Below are positions 1-38,855 of a stretch of 64,000 bases of DNA, piece by piece. The notes beneath the pieces were generated by a model, which worked only from the letters and a program-made list of their open reading frames with translations, ran no database searches and was not told the origin of the DNA. The position numbers and the translations under genes were made by a program. Numbering within the stretch: position 1 is the first letter of the stretch; every line of letters begins with the position of its first letter. Origin of the DNA: Calditrichaceae bacterium (GTDB lineage Bacteria > Calditrichota > Calditrichia > Calditrichales > JBFXGD01); assembly GCA_050173015.1 (NCBI GenBank), contig JBFXLE010000001.1, positions 128,001 through 192,000 on the forward strand, written 5' to 3'.

Positions 1-1320
1 ATTCTGGTACCAGTTCCGTTTGCTTCCCAGGCTTTTTCCCGTCACCGATTCAAAAATGCTGCTTTGCGAGTGGTTAAAAGAAAGGCTGGGAAGGGTATAA
101 TCCAGTCTTTCCGTCTGCAGGTTTTCCGTTTGGCTCATACTCAGGGTCATGCTGTTTTTAGTGCCTTTCCAGCTCTTTCTCACGGAAAGGTTTGAGCTGA
201 TATTCTGATTTAAACGGTCGTTGACGTTTGATGAGAGATCCTGTGAAAAACTTTTATCGCTCTGAAAACTTCCGGAACCTGATATGCTCAGAGTCGGATT
301 GATGGTCTGGCTATGATTAAACCGGATACGCCAACGCTCCTGGCGCTGGCCGCTGCTCGGGTCTTTCGGATAATACTCCGTGGAAAGATTTCCGTTAAGG
401 AAGTAACGCAGGGTATAGCGAAAATCTCCGCGAAATGTAAATCCGAGCCGGTCGTAATAATCGGTAAGAAAGGTGCCGTCAAAATAGTCGTTTGGCGCCC
501 AGTAATATCCTATTCCTCTTAAAAACCGGCCTCCTGCCTGGCTTTCACCGTAGGAAGGCACCACTAAGCCTGATTGCCGCCCGCCTTTATTGGGAAATAT
601 TCCAAAGGGCAAAGCCATTACAGGTACATCGGCAATATAAAAATAGATCGGCTTGGCGACGACCTTGTCTTTTGTTTTAACCCGCATCTTTGAACTTTTA
701 AAATAGAAATGAGGATGATCAATATTATCGCAGGTAGTAAAATATCCGGTTTGCACGAGAAGGGTTTTATTCGATATTTTATTAATCTGTGACCCCTTGT
801 AATAACCGGGATCCATCTTGGTTTTACCCTGGGTGATTTTGCCCCGTTTGGTGTCAAAATTATACTCGATAAAATTACCTTCCATCGGTTCGGTGCCTTT
901 TTCAGAAAAAACAGGGGTTCCCGAATAATATTCAAACCCGTCCGCGTCAACGGAATCGAGAATTCCGTTCGAATATAAAGTATTTATGTTACGATCGACT
1001 TTGATGAACGCGGCAGTTAGCGTCATATCCTGATATTCGATTTTCGCGTTTCCATGGAGATAGATCGTATTGTCATTGTAGCTCAGATCAATTTGATCTG
1101 CCCAATACCTGATCGGTCCTTCTAACTGCCCGTCTTTTGGTTTTGCCGATTTGACAGTATCCGCGGTGGCTTTTTGAAGCAGTGAATCAGCTTCGACAGA
1201 CACTTCCTGGGCATGCAGAATACTTGCCTTTACCGAAAAGATAATGGTAGTCAAAACTATTATCGGCGCAAGAAAATGAAGAATGTTGATTTTCTCTGAA
1301 TGATTCACTGGTCTCTTCAT
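1..1320 (-). CDS. lptD: LPS-assembly protein LptD-like (partial, runs off left edge)
   Basis: Not in the ORF track. Manual translation from ATG at 1320 gives MKRPVNHSEKINILHFLAPIIVLTTIIFSVKASILHAQ...IRYWADQIDL...LHGNAKIEYQDMTLTA...GYFTTCDNIDHPHFYF...PFGIFPNKGGRQSGLVVPSYGES...GYYWAPNDYFD. These are OstA/LptD-type motifs. Confidence 0.8.
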   Translation of the reverse strand, partial: MKRPVNHSEKINILHFLAPIIVLTTIIFSVKASILHAQEVSVEADSLLQKATADTVKSAKPKDGQLEGPIRYWADQIDLSYNDNTIYLHGNAKIEYQDMTLTAAFIKVDRNINTLYSNGILDSVDADGFEYYSGTPVFSEKGTEPMEGNFIEYNFDTKRGKITQGKTKMDPGYYKGSQINKISNKTLLVQTGYFTTCDNIDHPHFYFKSSKMRVKTKDKVVAKPIYFYIADVPVMALPFGIFPNKGGRQSGLVVPSYGESQAGGRFLRGIGYYWAPNDYFDGTFLTDYYDRLGFTFRGDFRYTLRYFLNGNLSTEYYPKDPSSGQRQERWRIRFNHSQTINPTLSISGSGSFQSDKSFSQDLSSNVNDRLNQNISSNLSVRKSWKGTKNSMTLSMSQTENLQTERLDYTLPSLSFNHSQSSIFESVTGKSLGSKRNWYQN

Positions 1321-6980: not shown

Positions 6981-7908
6981 GAAGGTACGGATCGGAACTC
7001 GAGATAGTGAACTGGCGCTCTGGCAGACGCATTGGGTGCGGAAAAAATTGAAGGAGCTGAATCCGGCGATAACTATTGAAATTATAGAGGTTAAAACCAT
7101 CGGTGATAAAATACTGGATACACCGCTATCTAAAATCGGGGACAAGGGACTTTTTACAAAGGAAATCGACCGGGCTCTGCTTGATAATGAAATAGATTTA
7201 GCGGTGCACAGCATGAAAGATGTGCCCACAACCATACCTGAAGAACTTACAATCGCGGCGATCACCGGACGATGGCATGCAAATGATATTCTGATTTCAA
7301 GGGATAATCTAACGATCGATACACTACCCGAGGGGGCGTCGATCGCGACAGGGAGTCTTCGAAGAAAAGCGCAATTGTTAAATTATCGTAAAGACTTCCG
7401 AATTATCGATCTTAGAGGCAATCTGAATACACGATTCAGAAAGTTTGACGAAGCGGATTGGGACGGTATGGTTCTTGCCCAGGCCGGTGTGGAGCGTTTA
7501 GGATGGCAGGACAGAATATCGGAACGCATTTCATTGAACATTCTTCTCCCGGCCGTCGGTCAGGGAAGTTTTGCGATTATTTGCCGCGAAAATGACCGAG
7601 ATACTAAGAATCTGCTAAAACCGCTGCATGATGATCATTCAGCAGCCGGGATACGCGCTGAAAGAGCCTTGCTGCATAAACTGGAGGGCGGATGTCAGGT
7701 ACCAATCGGGGCATACGGTGAGATTGTTCAGAATCGACTCCGCCTGAAGGCGTGTGTCTCAAGTCTTGACGGCCAGACGCTCATTGAAGATATGGCGGAA
7801 GGCGCGATCAATTTGCCGGAAGAATTAGGTATATCGGTTGCGGAAAAACTGATTTCCATGGGTGGAAAAGAGATATTGGACCGCATCATAATGGAAAACC
7901 GCGCATGA
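6973..7908 (+). CDS. hemC: hydroxymethylbilane synthase
   Basis: IGTRDSELALWQ, GDKGLFTKE, AVHSMKDVP, LEGGCQVPIG; ATG 6973 preferred (GGAGG RBS). Confidence 0.97.
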   Translation: MSKKVRIGTRDSELALWQTHWVRKKLKELNPAITIEIIEVKTIGDKILDTPLSKIGDKGLFTKEIDRALLDNEIDLAVHSMKDVPTTIPEELTIAAITGRWHANDILISRDNLTIDTLPEGASIATGSLRRKAQLLNYRKDFRIIDLRGNLNTRFRKFDEADWDGMVLAQAGVERLGWQDRISERISLNILLPAVGQGSFAIICRENDRDTKNLLKPLHDDHSAAGIRAERALLHKLEGGCQVPIGAYGEIVQNRLRLKACVSSLDGQTLIEDMAEGAINLPEELGISVAEKLISMGGKEILDRIIMENRA

Positions 7909-9427: not shown

Positions 9428-10465
9428 GTGATGGATGAAAATACAAATCACCTCTTTATAAAGGCATGTTTTGGACAGCGGGTTGAACGCACACCGGTTT
9501 GGATGATGCGGCAGGCGGGCCGTTATTTGCCTGAATACCGGCAGATCCGACAAAAATATAATTTTACCGGTATGTATAAAACACCGGATGTGGCGACCGA
9601 AGTCACTCTTCAGCCGGTGGATATTCTCGGAGTCGACGCCGCCATTCTTTTCTCGGATATTCTGGTGGTTCCCGAAGCGATGGGCATGGAGCTGCATTTT
9701 ATAGAAGAGAAGGGGCCTCAGTTTACGGATCCTCTGCGGTCCGTAAAACAAATACGGCAATTACCGGCAATCCACGCGGAAAGTGAACTCGGATATGTTC
9801 TGCAGGCGATCAGAAATATCAGACAGGAATTGAACAATCGCGTTCCCCTGATCGGATTCAGCGGGGCTCCCTGGACGCTCGCCACTTATATGATCGAAGG
9901 AAGCGGATCCAGAAATTATAAATATATCAAAACACTGCGATTTGGAAATCCGGCCTTATTACATGAATTGCTGGAAAAAGTGACTGTCACGGTTATCGAC
10001 TATTGTAAAGCACAAATTGAAAACGGGGTTCAGGCGGTGCAGTTGTTTGACAGTTGGGCTGGAATGCTTGATGAAGAAGGATTTTACGAATTCGCGCTTC
10101 CCTACGTACAAAGAATCATCAAGGAGATACGTAAACCCGGAGTTCCTGTCATTTACTTTGCTAAAGGGGCAATGGCCTGGCTGGATAAACTAAGTCTTTC
10201 CGGCGCTGATGTCCTGGGACTTGACTGGACAATTGATCCGGTCAGGGCTGTAGAATTAATCAAAAATAAAACCGCTCTGCAGGGAAATCTTGATCCAACG
10301 GCTCTTTACGCGCCACCCGCGGAAATCCACGCGCATGTCAAAAAAATGCTTAAAGGATTTAATGGCGCGGCCGGCCATGTCGCCAATCTGGGACACGGAA
10401 TTTTGCCTGATATACCGGTGGATCACGCGAGGGCATTTATAGACGCGGTAAAAGAAGAAAGCTGA
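9428..10465 (+). CDS. hemE: uroporphyrinogen decarboxylase
   Basis: PVWMMRQAGRYLPEY, AAILFSDIL, NLGHGI. Confidence 0.97.
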   Translation: MMDENTNHLFIKACFGQRVERTPVWMMRQAGRYLPEYRQIRQKYNFTGMYKTPDVATEVTLQPVDILGVDAAILFSDILVVPEAMGMELHFIEEKGPQFTDPLRSVKQIRQLPAIHAESELGYVLQAIRNIRQELNNRVPLIGFSGAPWTLATYMIEGSGSRNYKYIKTLRFGNPALLHELLEKVTVTVIDYCKAQIENGVQAVQLFDSWAGMLDEEGFYEFALPYVQRIIKEIRKPGVPVIYFAKGAMAWLDKLSLSGADVLGLDWTIDPVRAVELIKNKTALQGNLDPTALYAPPAEIHAHVKKMLKGFNGAAGHVANLGHGILPDIPVDHARAFIDAVKEES

Positions 10466-28947: not shown

Positions 28948-30261
28948 TTATAAAGTGATCAGGAATCCGGCAATAGTAGCCGTCATAAAAGTTGCCAAAG
29001 ATCCGCCGAGAACGGCCAATAGCCCGTATTTAGCGAGATCACTTCTTCTTGTCGGCGCGATACCGCCGATGCCGCCGATTTGAATGGCGATAGATGAAAA
29101 GTTCGCGAATCCACAAAGGGCGTAAGTTGATATAATGACCGCCTTTTCACTTAAAACTCCGGTTGGTATCAATTGAGATAGATTTAAGTAGGCGATAAAT
29201 TCATTTAATACGACCTTCTGCCCGATCAAAGAACCGACATTTACAGCATCAGCCCATGGCACGCCAATTACCCAGGCAATGGGGCTGAGCACATAACCCA
29301 GGATAATTTCCAATGAGACCGGAGCGCCGGAGGCGGTTGTCAGTCCGAACATACCGGTTAAAACACCTTCCAGGATCCAGTTAATCATGGCGATGAGAGC
29401 TATAAAAGCCAAAAGCATTCCGGCGACGTTGAGCGCTAATTTCAGACCGTCGGCCGCTCCTGTTGCCGCGGCTTCAATGACGTTGGAGGAGGTCTTTTCA
29501 ATTTCAACCTTCACCTGGCCCATGGTAAGAGATTTCTCTCTTTCAGGGACAAGAATTTTAGCGATCACTATTGTCGCGGGCGCCGCCATAATACTGGCGG
29601 AGAGCAGATGTTTCGCGTAATATAGTTGCTGCGCGGGATCAGCGCCGCCCAAAAGGCCCACATAAGCCGCCAGCACGCCGCCGGCGATCGTAGCCATGCC
29701 CCCGATCATGAGTGTAAGAAGTTCGGATTTCGTCATTGTTTCAACATAGGGCCGAACGACCAGAGGGGCTTCGGTTTGACCGATGAAGACATTCGCTGCG
29801 ACCGAAATTGACTCCGAGCCGCTGATACTTAAAAGTTTAGCCATTACCCAGGCCATTCCCTGGACGATTTTTTGCATGATACCCAGATGGTACAAAACGG
29901 ACATTAGAGACGAGAAAAAGATTATTGTCGGCAAAACCTGGAACGCAAAAATGAACCCGACTCCTGTAGCTTTTAAAGGATCGGGAAAGGCTTCACTGAA
30001 AAGTCCCTGATCGGCCAGCGCGCCAAATACGAATGCAGAGCCCTCACCGGTAAATGAAATAATTTTTACAAAGAAGTTACCGATATAGTTAAAGAAGCTG
30101 GCTCCCCAAGGCGTTAGAATAACGAAAATCGCGAAAACAATCTGCATCGCGAGGCCTATTCCCACCTGTTTCCAGTTGATTTTCTTTTTATTATTCGAGA
30201 AAAGAAACGCTATACCGACTAATGATATTAAACCAAACACAGCAAATAAGAAATCGTTCAT
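28948..30261 (-). CDS. nupC: concentrative nucleoside transporter (NupC/CNT)
   Basis: VLPTIIFFS, FIGQTEAP, NEFIAY, CGFANFSSI. Confidence 0.93.
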   Translation of the reverse strand: MNDFLFAVFGLISLVGIAFLFSNNKKKINWKQVGIGLAMQIVFAIFVILTPWGASFFNYIGNFFVKIISFTGEGSAFVFGALADQGLFSEAFPDPLKATGVGFIFAFQVLPTIIFFSSLMSVLYHLGIMQKIVQGMAWVMAKLLSISGSESISVAANVFIGQTEAPLVVRPYVETMTKSELLTLMIGGMATIAGGVLAAYVGLLGGADPAQQLYYAKHLLSASIMAAPATIVIAKILVPEREKSLTMGQVKVEIEKTSSNVIEAAATGAADGLKLALNVAGMLLAFIALIAMINWILEGVLTGMFGLTTASGAPVSLEIILGYVLSPIAWVIGVPWADAVNVGSLIGQKVVLNEFIAYLNLSQLIPTGVLSEKAVIISTYALCGFANFSSIAIQIGGIGGIAPTRRSDLAKYGLLAVLGGSLATFMTATIAGFLITL

Positions 30262-30845
30262 TCTGATTTATTCTCCTTCTCTTCATCCGCAGGCGGAACA
30301 AAGCAATTTCGGCATCGGGCTTCATAGATATCCGTCGCTCCAACAAGAATTCTGTCTGTGTCACCCGATTTTCTGTAAGTATGATTAGCGGGATTTCCGC
30401 AAATTGTGCATATGGCATGTGTTTTTGTGATGTATTCGGCAATGGCCAGCAGTTGTGGTATGGATCCAAAAGGTATTCCCCTGTAATCCTGATCCAGGCC
30501 GGCTACAATGACTCTCTTACCCATATTTGCCAGAGTTTGGCAAATTTTAACGATGGATTCATCAAAAAATTGAGCTTCATCGATACCCACGACCTGAGCT
30601 TCAAGAGCAAAAGTCAGAATTTCTTCCGGCTTTTGTATGGTTCTTGACTGAATTTTCTGAAAATCATGGGATACAATTTGTTCCTTACTGTACCGGTCAT
30701 CAATCTTAGGCTTGAATATCTCAACTTTTTGTCTGGCGATTGTCGCCCGTCGAAGCCGACGGATAAGTTCTTCTGTTTTTCCGCTGAACATGCTTCCGCA
30801 GATGACTTCGATCCAACCCGTGTGCTGTTTCACTACATGCATCAT
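30258..30845 (-). CDS. tdk: thymidine kinase
   Basis: GSMFSGKTEEL, IDEAQF, YEARCR. Confidence 0.96.
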   Translation of the reverse strand: MMHVVKQHTGWIEVICGSMFSGKTEELIRRLRRATIARQKVEIFKPKIDDRYSKEQIVSHDFQKIQSRTIQKPEEILTFALEAQVVGIDEAQFFDESIVKICQTLANMGKRVIVAGLDQDYRGIPFGSIPQLLAIAEYITKTHAICTICGNPANHTYRKSGDTDRILVGATDIYEARCRNCFVPPADEEKENKSE

Positions 30846-30871
30846 AATTTGAAATGTATCCTATTGTTTAT

Positions 30872-31498
30872 TCAGTTTCTGGTTCTTAGAAGCGATTCGA
30901 TTTTTGTAGTCAGTAAATCAATGGCGACTAAATTTTTTCCTCCGCGGGGGATGATAATATGGGCATGGCGTTTCGAAGGCTCAACAAATTGGAAATACAT
31001 CGGTCTTACGGTTTCTGTATATTGCGTAATAACCGATTCAACTGATCGGCCCCTTTCGTTGATATCTCTCCGCAGCCTCCTGATAAAACAGATATCCGGA
31101 TCGGTATCGATAAAGACCATGATATCCATCAAATCCCGAAGGCCGGGTTCGCTCAATATTAAAATGCCTTCCAAAATTACTATCGCGTGAGGCCCCACTC
31201 TCTTTGTTTCCTCAAGACGGCTGTGAGTCTTATAGTCATAGAGCGGATGTTCTATTGAATCACCATTCAGCAATTGTTTGATATGTTTTTGCAAAAGGGG
31301 GTGATCAAAGGAATCGGGATGATCAAAGTTCCTGCCGGTTCGGTCATCGAACGGGATATCTGAAAGATCATGATAGTATGAGTCTTCCTGAATCATCAGA
31401 ACTTTTTCTGAACCCAGTTTCTCAATGATCGTATTTGCGACAAGTGTTTTTCCTGAGCCGGATGCGCCGGCAATGCCAATAAGTATATTTTTGTTCAT
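30872..31498 (-). CDS. udk: uridine kinase
   Basis: GIAGASGSGKT, NFDHPDSFD, RRLRRDINERGR. Confidence 0.95.
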   Translation of the reverse strand: MNKNILIGIAGASGSGKTLVANTIIEKLGSEKVLMIQEDSYYHDLSDIPFDDRTGRNFDHPDSFDHPLLQKHIKQLLNGDSIEHPLYDYKTHSRLEETKRVGPHAIVILEGILILSEPGLRDLMDIMVFIDTDPDICFIRRLRRDINERGRSVESVITQYTETVRPMYFQFVEPSKRHAHIIIPRGGKNLVAIDLLTTKIESLLRTRN

Positions 31499-31899
31499 TT
31501 TTGGCTCAATTGTGATTCTTCAAACGCATATGGAAGTAATTCTCTTAATTTTAGAATCTTTTGATTTTTTCCATCAGTTAAAATTACATCAATTTCAGGA
31601 GCGTAATCATACAATAATTGTCTGCAGGCTCCGCACGGAGAGCAGAACTTACCGTCAATGGCGGTGATTGCAATTGCTCTGAATTTGGTAACTCCCTGGG
31701 AAAGAGCTTTTGTCAGAGCGACTCTTTCGGCGCAAATGGTCAGGCTGTAGGAACTGCTCTCGATGTTACATCCTGAAAAGATCTGGCCATCTTCATCCAG
31801 AAGAGCGGCGCCAACCCGGAAGTTGGAATATTTTGCCTGAGAATATTTGCGGGCGTTTTTCGCCGCGTCAATCAATTTACCGGCATCGTATTTAGGCAT
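31495..31899 (-). CDS. cdd: cytidine deaminase
   Basis: YSNFRVGAA, ICAER, PCGACRQ. Confidence 0.95.
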   Translation of the reverse strand: MPKYDAGKLIDAAKNARKYSQAKYSNFRVGAALLDEDGQIFSGCNIESSSYSLTICAERVALTKALSQGVTKFRAIAITAIDGKFCSPCGACRQLLYDYAPEIDVILTDGKNQKILKLRELLPYAFEESQLSQK

Positions 31900-32036
31900 G
31901 GCAAATCCATTTTTTTGTATTAAAGTAATATAAGTTAAGATTTTTTAGGGGCGAATACAAAAGGATATTCATAAAGAAGGCACCTCCTATGCCCATTAAA
32001 CCTTTTGTTGCAAGAGTGATAAATTAATTTCTGGTT

Positions 32037-32480
32037 TTAGAAGGGAAGATCATCCGATTCATGTCCATCGTCCGCGGACGGTTTCTCTGAAACCTTGCTG
32101 TCATCCGAAGCAGGTTCATCCTGATATGTGGATTCACTATCACCTTTTGAGCCCAGAAGCTGCAGGTTAAGGGCAATAATCTCGGTTTTGTACTTTTTTT
32201 GGCCTTGCTGGTCTTCCCAACTGCTTGTTTGCAGGCGCCCTTCCAGATAAACTAATTTACCCTTTTTTAAATACTCACCGACAAATTCAGCCGTTTTCCC
32301 AAAAGTAACGATGTTGTGCCATTCGGTTTTATCCGTCCATGAACCTTCGGCATCCTTTTGGCCGTGATTTGTGGCAACAGAAAAGCTCGCGATTGCAGTT
32401 CCGCCGGGCGAATACCGCATATCAGGGTCTTGGCCAAGGCGACCGATGATAATCGCTTTGTTCACAGTTCCTCGTGACAT
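32037..32480 (-). CDS. ssb: single-stranded DNA-binding protein
   Basis: VNKAIIIGRLGQDP, TEWHNI, C-terminal DDLPF. Confidence 0.96.
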   Translation of the reverse strand: MSRGTVNKAIIIGRLGQDPDMRYSPGGTAIASFSVATNHGQKDAEGSWTDKTEWHNIVTFGKTAEFVGEYLKKGKLVYLEGRLQTSSWEDQQGQKKYKTEIIALNLQLLGSKGDSESTYQDEPASDDSKVSEKPSADDGHESDDLPF

Positions 32481-32522
32481 GAGTCCTCCAATGTTGGTTT
32501 AAATTTGATAGATAGGTTATTT

Positions 32523-32567
32523 AGAAAAATAGCCTCAGAACAGAATAAGACAAGTTCAGAGGCTATT
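32523..32567 (-). terminator. intrinsic terminator downstream of the peptide array
   Basis: AATAGCCTC...GAGGCTATT stem followed by a T-run on the minus strand. Confidence 0.7.
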
Positions 32568-32632
32568 AAAGTTAAAAAAATTATCAAAAAATACAAGTTA
32601 AAATATTTTAATTGACATTTACTTTCCGATCC

Positions 32633-32788
32633 TTAAGGTTTCGGGCGCGGAGGCGGAGGTAAAGGAACAATAGTGGCGAATTCAGCGCCGGATCTTGGGC
32701 TTGCATCCGTAGTTGCCGTACTCAGTATGGTCATAAAAATGGCCGCTGCGAAAACGAAGGTTACTATTATTGCTGCAATCTTTTTCAT
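32633..32788 (-). CDS. 51-aa exported proline-rich peptide, copy 1
   Basis: AAGGAG RBS then MKKIAAIIVTFVFAAAIFMTILSTATTDASPRSGAEFATIVPLPPPPRPKP; differs from copy 2 only at synonymous sites. Confidence 0.85.
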   Translation of the reverse strand: MKKIAAIIVTFVFAAAIFMTILSTATTDASPRSGAEFATIVPLPPPPRPKP

Positions 32789-32840
32789 GTGATAACTCCT
32801 TAAGACAGTGTTGTTGTAATTCATTCAATAAACCGTTTGA

Positions 32841-32996
32841 TTATGGTTTTGGGCGCGGAGGCGGAGGTAAAGGAACAATAGTGGCAAATTCAGCGCCGGA
32901 TCTTGGGCTTGCATCCGTAGTTGCTGTACTCAGTATGGTCATAAAAATGGCCGCTGCGAAAACAAAGGTTACTATAATTGCTGCAATCTTTTTCAT
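32841..32996 (-). CDS. 51-aa exported proline-rich peptide, copy 2
   Basis: Same RBS, identical protein to copy 1, 208-bp period. Confidence 0.85.
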   Translation of the reverse strand: MKKIAAIIVTFVFAAAIFMTILSTATTDASPRSGAEFATIVPLPPPPRPKP

Positions 32997-33048
32997 GTGA
33001 TAACTCCTTAATACAGTGTTGTTGTAATTCATTCAATGAACCGTTTGA

Positions 33049-33204
33049 TTATGGTTTTGGGCGCGGAGGCGGAGGTAAAGGAACAATAGTGGCGAATTCA
33101 GCGCCGGATTTTGGGCTTCCGTTTGTTGATGCTACGTCCACAACCGTGAAAACGATTGCTGCCGCAAATACCAATGCGACAATGAGGGAGGCCAACTTTT
33201 TCAT
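33049..33204 (-). CDS. 51-aa exported proline-rich peptide, copy 3
   Basis: AAGGAG RBS then MKKLASLIVALVFAAAIVFTVVDVASTNGSPKSGAEFATIVPLPPPPRPKP; last 19 aa identical to copies 1 and 2. Confidence 0.85.
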   Translation of the reverse strand: MKKLASLIVALVFAAAIVFTVVDVASTNGSPKSGAEFATIVPLPPPPRPKP

Positions 33205-33299
33205 GTGATAACTCCTTTGTTGGGGGTGTGATTTGTATTTATGAAAAGAAAAGTAATTCCGTGAATAGGGGGCTGATAAACAGAAATAGTATGTCATGG

Positions 33300-33660
33300 A
33301 TCAGATCTTTCTTACAGCAATTTTGTAATTAAAAGATCCATCTAAAAATTGGGGGCTTCCGTGCGGGTAACAGGTTTAATTGAATAAATTAACTGTTATT
33401 TGAATCATCTCTGAATATTATCAGATCTTCCATACAGCAGTTCTGTAATTTAAAGATCCATCTAAAAATTGGGGGCTTCCGTGCGGGTAACAGGTTTAAT
33501 TGAATAAATTACCTGTTATTAGAATCGTCTCTGATTATTATCAGATCTTCCATACAGCAGTTCTGTAATTTAAAGATCCATCTAAAATTTTAAGGCTTCC
33601 GTGCGGTGAACAGGTTTAATTGAATAATTTACCTGTTAATTGAATCGTCGCTGATTATTA
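33300..33660. repeat. 3 x 120-bp tandem repeat with internal hairpins
   Basis: Units start at 33301, 33421 and 33541 and align without gaps; each carries two inverted repeats. Confidence 0.95.
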
Positions 33661-33847
33661 AATGAGTAGGACTAACCGGGATAATACTGCAAATCCAGGT
33701 TCTGTTGTCATGAAATTCAATGATACTGTATCTTTCAGGAAATTGGTTCTGAAGAATTTGGCGGATATCTGAGACGCATGAAAATGTCTGAACGATCAGA
33801 AAAAAAAGTGATATGGCAAATATAATAGGTTTTAGCAGTTCCCGCAT
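33629..33847 (-). CDS. putative 72-aa small protein with hydrophobic N-terminus
   Basis: GGAG 6 nt upstream of ATG; signal-like MRELLKPIIFAISLFFLIVQTFSC; ends inside the repeat. Confidence 0.4.
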   Translation of the reverse strand: MRELLKPIIFAISLFFLIVQTFSCVSDIRQILQNQFPERYSIIEFHDNRTWICSIIPVSPTHLIISDDSINR

Positions 33848-33963
33848 CCCTGTCTCCAGTTGCTTAACGAGAACCTTCCGTGGTTGGATTTGACTTCCCT
33901 GGTGAGCTCAATATGAGCAGTAAAAGTCGAACAGTACGTGAGTCGACATAAATGATTTATAAG

Positions 33964-33991
33964 AATATAATTAATACATGTGAAAATGCAA
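33964..33991 (-). promoter_or_regulatory. possible sigma70 promoter for the peptide island
   Basis: Minus strand TTGCAT-16 nt-TATATT; same -35 hexamer as the heme promoter. Confidence 0.35.
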
Positions 33992-34130
33992 TAATTAATA
34001 TCTATATTATTGACATTTTAGTCACTTCCCATAAGCGCATTTAATTTAATTTTTTTATACCGCGGTTAAAACTTTGTTATAAAATTAATATTTTGCTAAA
34101 TTTAAGTCTTTGATCGGATACTACAGGAAA

Positions 34131-34631
34131 ATGGATCTATCTGTGAAAAATAATGAGAATATCTTGGCACAAAGGATTTTAATCACAGGTTTTACGCTGT
34201 TGTCGGTCTGGATGCTCATGTTATCTTTTGCCCCGATGTTAATGAACAGCGGTTCTTATGCGGCGCAGTACGCGGCGACCATCGTATATTTTATGACGGA
34301 TCCTGTTTGTCATCAGCTGCCGGAACGAAGTCTGTTTATTTCAGGAATACCCATGCCCGTGTGCGCGCGTTGCTATTTTATATATCTGGGTGGGTGGACG
34401 ACATTCCTGATCCCTGTTTTTAGCGGGAAAATCAATTTTTGGCGTTACAGAGTATATTTGATCATGGGGATAATTATTTTAGCGGAATTTGTATCTGAAA
34501 AAACCGGTCTTTACCAAAATTTGGCCGGGATACGGATGATCGCGGGATTCTTATTGGGAATACTGATATTCAGATTAATTATTGAAGCATTAAATTTGAA
34601 TGAACAAAGAGGGACAGAGGAAAATGGATAA
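34131..34631 (+). CDS. DUF2085-like membrane protein
   Basis: VCHQLPERSLF...MPVCARC signature; ATG 34131 preferred. Confidence 0.8.
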   Translation: MDLSVKNNENILAQRILITGFTLLSVWMLMLSFAPMLMNSGSYAAQYAATIVYFMTDPVCHQLPERSLFISGIPMPVCARCYFIYLGGWTTFLIPVFSGKINFWRYRVYLIMGIIILAEFVSEKTGLYQNLAGIRMIAGFLLGILIFRLIIEALNLNEQRGTEENG

Positions 34632-35118
34632 CAGGATTCTATACCAGGGAGCGGTGCTTGGCGGTACCGTGGCGGCTCTGACCGACGCTTTGCCGCTGCT
34701 AAATATTATTAATTGTCTTTGTTGTTTGGGAATTATATCAGGCGGGGTGGTGGCAGTCCTTTTTTACCGTAAAACGGCAGAACCCGAATACAGGGATCTC
34801 AATACGCCTTCCACGGTGCAGCTTGGGTTGATGGCCGGTCTGTTCGGCGCATTTATCTCCTTTGGACTGCAATATATCGTGTTTAAAATAATGGGAAACT
34901 GGCAGATAGAATTGCTGACAAATATGTTTGAAAATTTGGATGAAGTACCGGCTTTATGGGAAAATCTATATGAAGAAATTCAGAAGGAAGAATACCAGGG
35001 TTTTGCGGGAATGGCCATACTCATCCGCTCACTGATTATATTTCCTGTATTTTCTCTGATAGGCGCACTGATTACAAAGCGTTTTATGGGAAGAAAACAG
35101 GAGTCATCGGGTAGTTAA
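34624..35118 (+). CDS. hypothetical membrane protein
   Basis: Four hydrophobic segments, NCLCC motif; overlaps the DUF2085 stop. Confidence 0.7.
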   Translation: MDNRILYQGAVLGGTVAALTDALPLLNIINCLCCLGIISGGVVAVLFYRKTAEPEYRDLNTPSTVQLGLMAGLFGAFISFGLQYIVFKIMGNWQIELLTNMFENLDEVPALWENLYEEIQKEEYQGFAGMAILIRSLIIFPVFSLIGALITKRFMGRKQESSGS

Positions 35119-36213: not shown

Positions 36214-37224
36214 TTAAAGAGAAGCCGCGATAACTGTTGAACGGATCACAGGATCATTCACCAGGTCACTCTTATAGTCATCCCCGAGCGCGGCCTGCAA
36301 TGCGGCTATGGCTACTTCAAGCTGCTCGTCATCCGGTGGACTGGTTGTGATGCGCTGTAAGCCCAATACCGGAGCGATAAGCGCCTGTACAACAGGATGA
36401 TTTGTATTGTTGGCAGAAGCCTTTAACGCTTCGTAACTCAATCCCCCTACAAAAGGGATCAGGGGCAGATGGGTCAGTATTCTGATCAAAAAATTTATAT
36501 CCCCGTACCACATCATGACCATCGTATCTACAAAAGCAAAAAACAACAGGCTGACAAGCATGACGATGACCAGAAAACTGGTCCCGCAGCGGGGGTGAAA
36601 TGTGGTGTATTTTTGAGCGTTTTCAGGAGAAAGAGTGACTTTGTCCTCAAAGGCAAAAATGGTTTTGTGCTCCGCGCCGTGGTACTGGAATAGTCTTTTT
36701 ATATCCGGCATAAACGAAATGCCCCAGACATATAAAAGAAAAAACAAAATTCTTATCGCACCGGCGGTAAAATTGAAGGTGATGGCCTGTTTCTCGATAT
36801 TGAAGACCACTGTAGTAATATAGAGCGGAAGAACAAAAAAGACGGCCGTTCCAATGAGCAGGGCGATAGAAACCGAAAAAATAGCGCTTAAAGTAGACAT
36901 CCCTTTTTTACCGTTTTTCTTCGTCTTTTTACCTTCTTTTTCTTCTCTCTCATTTATATCTTCCATGGCCTTGTCCGCGGACCATTGAAGTGTTTTGATT
37001 CCCAGAATCATCACCTCAATGAGCATAATCGCGCCCCGGATAATCGGAATATTAAGAATTTTTTTACGCTGCACCAATGACTGATATTCATTGACAAGAA
37101 TTTCAATATTGCCGTTTGCTCTGCGAATCGCTGTGGCGATGCGTTTTGGTGACCGCATCATGACACCTTCAATGACTGCCTGACCACCGACGGGCATTAT
37201 TTTTTCTTCTGACGCCTGATTCAT
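36214..37224 (-). CDS. DUF1385 family protein
   Basis: [27 protein letters not shown]; typical rpmE-prfA neighbour. Confidence 0.88.
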
Positions 37225-37326: not shown

Positions 37327-37530
37327 TTATTTGCGATTGTATTTCTTCATAAATTTTTCAACACGACCTGCAGAGTCAACCAGCTTTTGTTTGCCGGTAT
37401 AAAACGGATGACAATTTGAACAAATTTCCACTTTCAAATCGCCAACGACTGAGCGTGTTTCAAATGTGTTTCCACAAGCGCAACTCACCGTACCTACTTT
37501 ATAATCCGGATGGATATCTTTTTTCATCAT
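37327..37530 (-). CDS. rpmE: 50S ribosomal protein L31 (Zn-binding type)
   Basis: [27 protein letters not shown]. Confidence 0.97.
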
Positions 37531-37604: not shown

Positions 37605-38855
37605 TCAGGAACTCATAGAACGTAAAAATTCTTTATTGTTTTTTGTGTCACGCATCTTGTCAAGCAGGAATTCCATGCCTTCGATGATATTCATTTCATT
37701 GAGAAGTTTTCTCAATATCCAGATACGCGCCAGCTCTTCACGGCTGAGAAGGAGTTCTTCTTTTCTGGTACCCGATTTATTAATATCAATTGATGGGAAG
37801 AATCTTCTATCAGACAGACGGCGGTCGAGAACCAATTCCATATTGCCTGTTCCTTTGAATTCTTCAAAGATAACCTCATCCATTCTGGAGCCGGTGTCGA
37901 TCAAAGCGGTGGCAATGATAGTAAGGCTGCCGCCTTCTTCGACATTACGGGCAGATCCGAAGAAACGTTTTGGTTTTTGTAGCGCATTGGAATCAACACC
38001 ACCGGAGAGAATCTTGCCGCTATGCGGGACAACCGTATTATGAGCGCGGGCCAGACGGGTTATACTGTCTAACAGAATCACAACGTCTTTTTTGTATTCT
38101 ACAAGACGCTTGGCCTTCTCAAGCACCATATCCGCAACCTGAACGTGGCGCTCCGCGGGCTCGTCAAAGGTAGAACTAACAACTTCTGCGTTTACTGATC
38201 TTTCCATGTCGGTAACTTCTTCAGGACGCTCATCGATGAGCAGTACCATTAATTCGACTTCCGGCTGATTTTTAGTAATGGCGTTGGCGATTTTCTGCAG
38301 AAGAATAGTTTTACCGGTTCTCGGCTGGGCGACAATCAGTCCGCGCTGACCTTTGCCGATGGGGGTTAATAAATTCATTATTCGTGTGGAGTAGTCACTG
38401 CGGTCGGTCTCGAGTTCGATTCGCTGCAGAGGATAGAGCGGTGTAAGTGTGTCGAAAAGGTTGCGTGATCTGGCTTTATCCGGGCTTTCAAAATTAACGG
38501 CCTCCACGCGCAATAGCGCGAAGAAACGTTCATTATCCTTGGGGGGGCGAATCTGTCCGCTTACGGTATCTCCGGTTCTTAGCCCAAACCGTTTGATCTG
38601 AGATGGAGATATATAGATATCGTCGGGACCGGGGAGATAACTATAATTTTGTGAACGAAGGAATCCGTAGCCGTCCGGCAAAATTTCCAGCACACCCTTC
38701 GAAAAAATTAATCCTTCCTGAGCTGTCTGCTCTTCTAAAATGCGAAATATCAATTCCGCTTTTTTTAGACCGGAGAATCCGGTTATATTCATATCTTGAG
38801 CAATCTTTGTCAGCTCAGTGATTTTTTTGTCTTTTAATTCTTCAATGTCTAACAT
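37605..38855 (-). CDS. rho: transcription termination factor Rho
   Basis: [39 protein letters not shown]. Confidence 0.98.

Follow-up and report, generated by a model that had tools for sequence, protein, structure and literature searches.

Two of the closest described systems combine an N-terminal signal with prolines near the C terminus. In the accessible part of the published account, uA_LPPP of Planctomycetota has a signal sequence and an LPPP motif within its last 15 residues and is otherwise divergent; it lies upstream of secA, and the motif is at residues 110–113 in the tested member (PMC10987492). The same part of that account gives criteria for monitoring substrates, among them a small ORF directly upstream of sec or yidC, and more than 30 aa from the localisation signal to the end of the motif, the signal then being outside the ribosome (PMC10987492). 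CutF and CruR (DUF2946), according to the available portion of the report on them, contain a Sec signal peptide and a C-terminal proline repeat, show EF-P-dependent translation, possess a metal site of Cys and His, and regulate the gene that follows via an mRNA stem-loop or Rho (10.1101/2025.02.05.636593).

The island studied here contains three small-peptide genes with a comparable layout. Its features and their positions in the window, i.e. the whole 64,000-nt stretch of DNA that was analysed, are presented in Table 1. The neighbours scanned with Pfam are ssb, cdd, DUF2085, DUF4199, prfA and DUF1385. A sequence-only reading had described the interval as a single transcript coupling a regulatory RNA module to peptide production. 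The peptide genes and the 72-aa ORF, according to the ORF list, and the hairpin between ssb and the DUF2085 gene are indeed all on the minus strand. We lean towards the explanation that three paralogous small-peptide genes in tandem form the core of the island, and that the repeats and the 72-aa ORF are recent lineage-specific additions.

Table 1. Positions of the features in and beside the island
Feature	Position	Strand	Details
Island	between ssb and the DUF2085 gene		in the 64,000-nt window
ssb	32037–32480	minus	PF00436, E 2e-38
Intrinsic-terminator hairpin and U-run	32523–32567	minus	arms 32554–32567 and 32528–32541
Probable ssb promoter	32569–32596	minus	TTGTAT-16-TAACTT; between last peptide gene and hairpin
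Peptide gene B'	32633–32788	minus	51 aa; protein identical to B
Peptide gene B	32841–32996	minus	51 aa
Peptide gene A	33049–33204	minus	51 aa; MKK, hydrophobic helix, linker, FATIVPLPPPPRPKP end
19-nt motif, two inter-peptide spacers	33024–33042, 32816–32834	minus
19-nt motif, one per repeat unit	33374–33392, 33494–33512, 33614–33632	plus
Three 120-bp tandem units	33301–33660		non-coding; unit 1 33541–33660, unit 2 33421–33540, unit 3 33301–33420
72-aa ORF	33629–33847	minus	hydrophobic N-terminus
Promoter-like site pointing at DUF2085 gene	33943–33971	plus	TCGACA-17-TATAAT; 11/12, best in 32000–34700
Candidate promoter of the sequence-only reading	33964–33991	minus	TTGCAT-16-TATATT; 8/12 matches
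DUF2085 gene	34110–34631	plus

The peptide genes and their family

Tandem Repeats Finder reports a 208-bp period at 32633–33118 (2.3 copies, 96% matches), and each repeat unit of the array joins the 3' half of a gene to the 5' half of its neighbour. By codon-usage score the peptide genes do not stand out from spurious ORFs, so it is the selection test and the conservation of the family that speak for their being coding. In the closest relative (L001), whose contig stops within the first peptide gene, the array consists of a partial A, a single B and then a terminator; the second B copy is absent. Gene A differs from the partial L001 copy by 8 synonymous and 3 non-synonymous codons. The differences from L001 B are synonymous without exception, both for gene B (22 synonymous, 0 non-synonymous) and for gene B' (16 and 0). 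B and B' themselves differ at 6 codons, again all synonymous, and this identity of the two proteins argues that the extra copy is under selection. Translation of the region upstream of the MKK start agrees with P0002 at 18 of 31 residues, versus 50 of 51 within the peptide (counted by eye). The synonymous-only differences between B and its L001 counterpart and the conservation of the family bear out the earlier assignment of three genuine peptide genes. Their description as a triplication is right as to the number of genes, but the array consists of an older copy A and a recent duplication (B and B'). Over codons 30–51, A is separated from B by 2 codon differences and B from its L001 orthologue by 9, which indicates concerted evolution. 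Every copy has a strong, exposed ribosome-binding site. The spacers contain TTGAAT-17-TATTAA, but separate promoters for B and B' at this sequence were rejected, since the start would come after the ribosome-binding site.

A profile search of 1.84 billion representatives gave 15 matches at E<=0.001, or 14 excluding the window's own (gene A, E 2e-23), and 29 clusters of the family are found by a word-index search. The few clusters with an organism name all belong to Calditrichota or Calditrichaceae. In one MAG, two family proteins with consecutive accessions are identical, and the same longest-contig size is common to several family members. With Pfam the peptides have no match up to E 1, and with NCBIfam none at the family cut-off, and no mention of them was found in the literature searched. 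Based on these searches, the family appears to be undescribed and so far present only in Calditrichota. P0006 (479 aa), which is in the 90% cluster of P0001, was rejected as a member because its sequence is unrelated. In the ESM Atlas the best match for the peptide and 72-aa ORF queries was 0.78, below the useful level.

In all members (32/32), hydrophobicity over 19 residues peaks at residues 4–22. AlphaFold2 predicts a helix at residues 2–26 of peptide A and no regular secondary structure beyond (mean pLDDT 81). The first PPP is found at residue 42–46 in 30 of the 32 members, with a helix-to-PPP spacer of 19–23 aa. Conservation within the family is concentrated in the polar proline block rather than in the helix: the block reads [YF]AxIxP[LIV]PPP, with P46 invariant and P44 and P45 at least 90% conserved. 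Its [LIV]PPP part lies within the last 5–18 residues, and the tail after it is variable. A probable -1 alanine is present in 21/32 members (counted by eye). The window's peptides contain 0 Cys and 0 His.

Concerning the mode of action, the ~20-residue hydrophobic helix after Lys-Lys would be a Sec-type signal peptide or signal anchor, followed by a variable linker of ~20 residues and by the proline block, whose distance from the helix is fixed; the tail is short and either proline-rich or charged. The peptide would be inserted into or across the inner membrane with the proline block outside; we infer its export, cleavage and topology from these sequence features. The working part would be the conserved block rather than the helix, most likely as a stiff polyproline ligand. 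The ribosome would be expected to pass the run PPPPRPKP-stop slowly and with the help of elongation factor P. A proline-rich antimicrobial peptide was also considered and rejected, the net charge past the helix being only +1 in the window's copies. If the favoured reading holds, these very small peptides, exported or in the membrane, form a family restricted to one phylum and without a database model, in which an invariant proline run stands at a fixed distance from a membrane helix. Such a family would be a natural test case both for the membrane targeting of very short proteins with EF-P-dependent motifs and for the expansion of peptide-gene arrays by unequal recombination.

Gene order in relatives, terminator and promoters

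The genomic context of the family is known from three genomes: the window, L001 and L004. In L004 the order is prfA, one 66-aa homologue, a hairpin and ssb; the tandem repeat and the 72-aa ORF are both missing, and nothing there matches the 120-bp unit. L002 and L003 have no family member near ssb. The repeats and peptides had been expected to occur together in relatives, which is contradicted by L004, the one testable relative, where the peptide homologue stands without repeats; L001 was left out of this comparison because of the break in its contig. The ancestral state may have been that of L004, in which prfA and ssb flank a single peptide gene and the terminator belonging to it. Unequal recombination between the conserved 3' halves would then have amplified the gene, to at least two copies in L001 and three here. 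The 72-aa ORF and the three 120-bp repeats may lie within a long 5' leader, and the hairpin would end the peptide transcript, overlapping an apparently conserved ssb promoter.

The terminator hairpin (14-nt arms, 93% complementary, 12-nt loop) has a folding energy of -17.1 kcal/mol (z -5.5, 0/200 shuffles as good) and is followed by UAUUUUUC. It was overlooked by the promoter and terminator scan because its 12-nt loop exceeds the limit of 8 nt used there. The terminator is kept in L001, and in L004 its place is taken by a hairpin unlike it in sequence; it is missing in L002 and L003, which have no peptide gene (read by eye). The strong hairpin and U-run past the stop codon, together with their retention in L001, agree with the terminator first proposed at 32567–32523. 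Upstream of ssb, TTGTATTT is found in 5/5 Calditrichota sequences. A proline attenuator formed by the last gene and the hairpin was rejected: the distance from stop to hairpin is 65 nt, there is no convincing alternative structure, and the signal helix is conserved.

The signals at the other end of the island did not fare as well. The candidate promoter is under the scan cut-off, and with 8/12 matches, and 5 sites of the relaxed promoter pattern in the island vs 2.35 expected in shuffles, it is at chance level. The ‘leader hairpins’ proposed beside it fold at -10.3 kcal/mol (z -0.74, 45/200 shuffles as good), likewise at chance level, and are overlapped by the plus-strand promoter match.

The 72-aa ORF, the 120-bp repeats and the shared motif

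The 72-aa ORF matches only itself among 5.8 billion proteins, and it has no Pfam match at E up to 1; its best NCBIfam match (E 0.072) is far below the cut-off. Its codon score is as low as that of the proven peptide genes. A divergent member of the peptide family was considered on account of its IIPVSP stretch and rejected, as the profile aligns only the hydrophobic start, with a probability of 5.8%. The ORF is thus present on the minus strand as described, but it is an orphan with putative coding status, without homologues or a conserved place (absent in L004).

Tandem Repeats Finder confirms the three 120-bp repeats, with 3.0 copies and 92% matches at 33300–33660. The units differ pairwise at 10, 9 and 17 of 120 positions (8–14% divergence), and unit 1 starts inside the 72-aa ORF, within its final 10 codons. 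No further copy of the unit was found within the window or 80 loci, there is no degenerate fourth copy or likeness of the unit to its flanks, and the plasmid and phage collections gave no match to the repeats in distant mode. Repeats as coding sequence were rejected, with stops in all six frames (read by eye). The earlier description of the repeats as ‘RNA-like’ finds no backing: Rfam 15 gives 0 window matches at the gathering score (best sub-threshold E 0.79–6.8, far under the cut-offs), and the folds of the units are unremarkable (z-scores -0.7 to -2.1, alike on both strands). Also, among the 21 stem pairs of the unit, a count limited to three young copies, 3 lose their pairing in one copy, 1 has a one-sided change and none is altered in both partners, so compensatory changes number 0. 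A regulatory RNA module lacks support on the same grounds, as the repeats have no signs of a conserved or structured RNA and the peptide of L004 occurs without them. The claim of an undescribed system is only partly sustained: the peptide family is nameless in Pfam and NCBIfam, but the RNA module fails as its conserved partner. From the comparisons made, the 120-bp repeats appear to be a local addition and not part of a conserved unit.

Two further properties of the repeats were noted. GGA occurs 8 times on the minus strand vs 0 on the plus strand, or 3 vs 0 per independent unit (the idea of a CsrA-type decoy). A Dam switch through clustering of GATC was rejected: the 6 sites in the 360 bp of the repeats are equalled in other stretches of that length, and the window has 376 GATC sites vs 238 expected.

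Neutral local tandem duplication may have produced both the 120-bp array and the additional peptide copy, neither then having a function of its own, by slippage or unequal crossing-over; we regard this as a serious possibility, though not the one we would choose. The youth of the copies, the restriction of the array to this site and the origin of unit 1 as a copy of the 3' end of the orphan ORF all fit such an origin, as does the variation of copy number among close relatives, and predicted stems are not significantly depleted in variable columns (4/42, vs 14/78 elsewhere; p 0.29). It does not account for the protein identity of B and B' over their 6 synonymous changes, nor for a motif common to repeats and spacers.

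This 19-nt motif has 5 matches in the 64 kb, all in the island, vs 0.46 expected. Because it is common to the peptide and repeat arrays, in opposite orientation, the two are not independent, contrary to the earlier view of two independent triplications. Nucleotides 28–52 of the unit are reverse-complementary to the spacers at 22/24 positions, and the wider complementary stretch begins 4 nt past each stop codon (A and B). The best local reverse-complement score was equalled by 1/300 shuffles for unit 2, 6/300 for unit 3 and 18/300 for unit 1; for RNA duplex energy, shuffled targets did as well in 0/300 cases for unit 3, 1/300 for unit 2 and 8–23/300 for unit 1. No pairing of the units with the 5' region of gene A was found (226–280/300 shuffles as good). 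The shared inverted motif (~20 nt) is the only non-random tie between the repeats and the peptide genes, and on account of it the repeats may be more than bystanders.

The tie would have a function if three stem-loops in a leader, in a transcript from ~33991, paired through the loops of the units with the stretches past the A and B stop codons and so set translation or processing of the downstream peptide cistrons; a ribosome lingering on the proline run and Pro-stop would cover the start of the paired stretch. The 22/24 complementarity, the duplex energies of units 3 and 2 and the confinement of the motif to five island sites are in line with this. Also, the candidate promoter is the sole TTGnnn-16..18-TAnnnT minus-strand site upstream of the peptide genes. 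There are no terminator-like sites on the minus strand at 33205–33990, from the 72-aa ORF to the first peptide gene, so that one long transcript, and with it a single transcript across the island, is possible. We nevertheless consider such control unlikely. The 5' region of gene A takes no part in the pairing, the paired stretch stops ~14 nt short of the ribosome-binding site (read by eye), and the units are triplicates and provide only one independent observation (p about 0.01). Their folds are unremarkable on both strands, the three stem changes break pairs without compensation, the L004 peptide has no repeats, and the motif contains TTGAAT, which could equally be a DNA site.

Possible stalling peptides and comparison with known systems

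The peptides could also be arrest peptides like SecM, uA_LPPP and CutF, in which a stall at LPPP controls the next copy or ssb. They have the N-terminal localisation signal, the C-terminal [LIV]PPP block and the variable tail expected of this; LPPP stalls ribosomes in uA_LPPP (PMC10987492), and CutF and CruR are described as having a signal peptide and, at the C terminus, a proline repeat (10.1101/2025.02.05.636593), both as described in the accessible parts of those reports. With regard to the criteria for Sec/YidC monitors, a predicted signal or transmembrane segment (hydrophobicity, AlphaFold2) and a conserved motif are found, but neither sec nor yidC is downstream in the window, L001 or L004: what follows is another copy, the terminator or ssb. 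The spacer of 19–23 aa in 30/32 members is also shorter than the >30 aa of the published criterion, as stated in the available part of that text (PMC10987492). The window's peptides have no Cys/His metal site and no DUF2946 match, and L001 has not retained the CCUCC proline codons that might cover the next ribosome-binding site. This makes control by arrest improbable.

There is a comparably small chance that the family represents new, very short, signal-bearing polyproline pause peptides, and that the pairing between repeat and spacer is decided by a pause at PPPPRPKP-stop. The ~21-residue distance from helix to PPP would time the pause to when the signal is inside or just leaving the tunnel, and the result, if true, would be a circuit of RNA and peptide that differs from the Sec monitors known so far. 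A system like type I toxin-antitoxin loci, which often occur in tandem arrays, with small hydrophobic membrane peptides checked by repeat-derived small RNAs, is very improbable: peptides of ~50 aa with one predicted membrane helix in multi-copy arrays, and some complementarity of the repeats to the peptide transcript, would fit it, but every copy has a strong, exposed ribosome-binding site, family conservation is in the polar proline block and not in the helix, the repeats have no promoter-like site in or beside them on either strand, the complementarity is past the stop codons and not at the start region, and the L004 gene has no such RNA.

Under the reading we favour, a peptide array with recent additions, the island shares features with several known systems. 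As far as the available part of its description goes, uA_LPPP resembles the island peptides in its N-terminal signal, C-terminal LPPP motif and divergent remainder; the island peptides differ in being shorter, in their spacer of 19–23 aa, in having ssb behind a terminator and in belonging to another phylum. The DUF2946 proteins, to the extent covered by the accessible portion of their report, likewise have a signal peptide (a putative one in the island peptides) and a C-terminal proline run, but the island peptides have 0 Cys, 0 His, no DUF2946 match and no operon target gene. The Phr_nterm model (TIGR04429) aligns with residues 1–21 of the peptide at E 0.069, with 13.7 bits vs a cut-off of 25. 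The Phr-type pro-peptides of Bacillus are also short, with a Lys-rich start, a hydrophobic signal and a conserved C-terminal end; unlike them, the island, whose organism we take to be two-membraned, has no large unexplained gene beside it as a Rap-type partner (ORF list, Pfam). Tandem arrays of small-peptide genes in general evolve by unequal recombination. The island array differs from such recombining arrays in having no modification, transport or receptor gene beside it, but resembles them in that its paralogues are closer to each other in the 3' half than orthologues are, and in its variable copy number.

Organisation of the ssb–DUF2085 interval

The finding in the interval between ssb and the DUF2085 gene (the island) is real, though modest: tandemly amplified, selected and phylum-restricted small-peptide genes, which follow a lineage-specific non-coding tandem repeat. 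The coordinates of its elements are presented in the table. Tandem Repeats Finder detected two periods, one of 120 bp (3.0 copies, 92% matches), which bears out the three repeats described in the sequence-only reading, and one of 208 bp (2.3 copies, 96% matches). The hairpin with a U-run, read there as a terminator, also holds (-17.1 kcal/mol, z -5.5, 0/200 shuffles as good). The promoter and leader of that reading fared worse: the promoter has 8/12 matches and is absent from the promoter-scan list, the relaxed promoter pattern being found at 5 sites across the island vs 2.35 expected, and the leader hairpins are no more stable than shuffled sequences (z -0.74, 45/200 as good). These hairpins overlap a promoter match of the opposite strand, TCGACA-17-TATAAT (11/12, plus strand), which is the best of the region and is aimed at DUF2085.

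Features of the island and of the sites upstream of ssb in the window and in the Calditrichota loci L002–L004
Feature	Position	Strand	Remark
ssb	32037-32480	minus	PF00436, E 2e-38
Hairpin + U-run	32567-32523	minus	
TTGTATTT site, window	32569-32596	minus	TTGTAT-16-TAACTT
Peptide gene B', 51-aa ORF	32633-32788	minus	
Peptide gene B, 51-aa ORF	32841-32996	minus	
Peptide gene A, 51-aa ORF	33049-33204	minus	
Spacer, 96 nt		minus	listed between 120-bp units and 51-aa ORFs
Three 120-bp tandem units	33301-33660	minus	read on the strand of the island elements
72-aa ORF	33629-33847	minus	
Candidate promoter	33991-33964	minus	TTGCAT-16-TATATT
DUF2085 gene	34110-34631	plus	divergent from the minus-strand elements
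TTGTATTT site, L002	about 9918-9945		
TTGTATTT site, L003	about 7203-7232		same two hexamers as window
TTGTATTT site, L004	about 9901-9930		

Species-representative genomes were scanned with SSB, giving 80 loci, four of them (L001–L004) from Calditrichota. In L004 (SSB 65% identical) the order is prfA, 390 nt, one 66-aa peptide homologue (9678-9878; BLASTP E 1e-07, profile E 4.5e-18), a hairpin and ssb; the hairpin is unlike that of the window in sequence (-16.5 kcal/mol, z -6.75). This locus lacks a tandem repeat, any match to the 120-bp unit and a counterpart of the 72-aa ORF; repeats and peptides do not co-occur in this relative, a condition that the sequence-only reading had named as refuting it. 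L002 and L003 have neither peptide gene nor hairpin before ssb, and no DUF2085 or DUF4199 gene lies close to ssb in L002–L004. The conserved unit is thus smaller than the island: this lineage has added the 72-aa ORF and the repeats as well as the two genes on the plus strand. The DUF2085 and DUF4199 membrane-protein genes (34110-35118, plus), which overlap by 32 nt, separate prfA from the island and are read from the opposite strand. In L004 prfA directly precedes the peptide gene and ssb, and the pair therefore has the look of a lineage-specific insertion or rearrangement.

On the ssb side, TTGTATTT is found upstream of ssb in 5/5 Calditrichota sequences, with a TAnnnT hexamer 16-17 nt further on, and together they are probably the ssb promoter. 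The terminator hairpin starts directly after it in all three sequences with a peptide gene; therefore the island, whose elements do lie between ssb and DUF2085, is not fully self-contained as had been claimed. The hairpin would end peptide transcripts, and ssb transcripts would start inside its 5' arm. A second match to the ssb-upstream motif (1 mismatch; 37337-37360, plus) lies in the gap between the minus-strand genes 36214-37224 and 37605-38855, and is also a weak blastn match of the island. The genes 3' of ssb (28948-31899, minus) form a run resembling nucleoside salvage: the cytidine deaminase is confirmed by Pfam, and the rest, judged by eye from translations, look like uridine kinase, thymidine kinase and a nucleoside transporter. 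The ssb-cdd pair is kept in L001–L004.

Selection on the peptide genes and their family

In the closest relative, L001 (SSB 97% identical), the contig breaks off inside gene A, 471 nt upstream of ssb; the truncated A is followed by a single B, the hairpin seen in the window and ssb. All codon differences from L001 B are synonymous, both for B (22 synonymous, 0 non-synonymous) and for B' (16 and 0), which confirms the peptide genes as real; B and B' differ from each other by 6 synonymous and 0 non-synonymous changes, and the partial A comparison gives 8 and 3. Constraint is much weaker just 5' of MKK: translation through this DNA, as in the database protein P0002, matches at 18/31 residues vs 50/51 in the peptide. 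The codon-usage score did not tell the peptide genes apart from spurious ORFs; the evidence for coding therefore comes from selection and the family. The partial A of L001 reads PLPQPP and gene A of the window PLPPPP; the end of the contig (L001 1-471) is probably an assembly break brought about by peptide genes with repeated 3' halves.

A first word-index search returned near-identical proteins only. The profile search, for which all 1.84 billion representatives were read, gave 15 proteins at E<=0.001, and with the family alignment as query a further word-index search gave 29 clusters (51-82 aa), of which the few with organism names are all Calditrichota or Calditrichaceae. Pfam and NCBIfam have no family at cut-off for the peptides, and searches of the literature on Calditrichota small proteins and on proline-rich signal peptides turned up no mention of them. 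The family, which has no name, thus appears phylum-restricted. The 90% cluster of the 51-aa P0001 also lists the unrelated P0006 (479 aa), which looks like a clustering error of the collection.

In all 32 aligned members the most hydrophobic 19 residues are positions 4-22, and in 30/32 the first PPP is at residue 42-46, which gives a helix-to-proline-run spacing of 19-23 residues across a linker of varying sequence. F13 and P46 are invariant, P44 and P45 nearly so, and the tail beyond the proline run is variable (5-18 residues). AlphaFold2 on the alignment predicts a helix (2-26) followed by no regular secondary structure (mean pLDDT 81). Alanine is found at the likely cleavage position in 21/32 members, and the peptides may be exported and cleaved. 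The proline run is absent in 2/32 members; the L004 homologue keeps the helix and YASI stretch, has VPNGKQTPP in place of the PPP run and an acidic tail, and the run is therefore not universal in the family.

The 208-bp repeat joins the 3' half of a peptide gene to the 5' half of the gene that follows. Within codons 30-51 there are 2 differing codons between A and B but 9 between B and the L001 orthologue, a pattern which fits unequal recombination or gene conversion between conserved 3' halves. The window has A, B and B' vs A and one B in L001, and the multi-copy arrangement seems to recur: one MAG has an identical peptide under two consecutive accessions and, as circumstantial evidence, longest contigs of 177,475 and 6,790 are each common to three members.

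The 120-bp repeats and the shared inverted motif

The repeats have stops in all six frames, and unit 1 begins within the final 10 codons of the 72-aa ORF, which matched only itself among 5.8 billion proteins and has no detectable kinship to the peptide family. Folding of individual units gives z from -0.7 to -2.1, whichever strand is taken. Of 21 pairs in their predicted hairpins, 0 are changed on both sides, 3 lose their pairing in a single copy and 1 is altered on one side only; stems show no depletion of variable columns (4/42 vs 14/78 elsewhere, p 0.29). The units match nothing in Rfam or in the plasmid and phage collections, and no further copy is found in the window or the 80 loci. Nothing here favours structured RNA, in tests of little power with three young copies, and the regulatory-RNA role given to the repeat is unsupported except for one motif that it has in common with the peptide spacers.

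Nucleotides 28-52 of each unit, the loop and 3' arm of its middle hairpin, are reverse-complementary at 22/24 positions to a stretch that opens 4 nt beyond the A and B stop codons. When the units are scored against the complete peptide half of the island, dinucleotide shuffles do as well in 1/300 (unit 2), 6/300 (unit 3) and 18/300 (unit 1) cases; duplex energies agree for the unit-spacer pairing and reveal no signal at the 5' region of gene A. The shared 19-nt motif occurs five times in 64 kb vs 0.46 expected; its three plus-strand copies lie in the units, its two minus-strand copies in the inter-peptide spacers. As these copies are duplicates, they amount to one independent coincidence (p roughly 0.01). 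The motif could stem from pairing of RNA, from a protein site present in both places, the motif containing TTGAAT, or from an inverted duplication that is old.

Comparison with known arrest peptides

Two kinds of signal-bearing arrest peptides have a similar layout: the Planctomycetota uA_LPPP, with LPPP in the last 15 residues (PMC10987492), and the DUF2946 CutF/CruR, with a signal peptide and a C-terminal proline repeat (preprint 10.1101/2025.02.05.636593). Two features that define the uA_LPPP class fail here: the window genes do not precede a sec or yidC gene, and the peptide family has a spacer of 19-23 aa, where the search criterion for the class asks for >30 aa. The DUF2946 family match and metal site are absent from the window peptides. 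With these defining features failing, the peptides are not members of either group; by analogy of layout, a likeness to arrest peptides in their working is possible.
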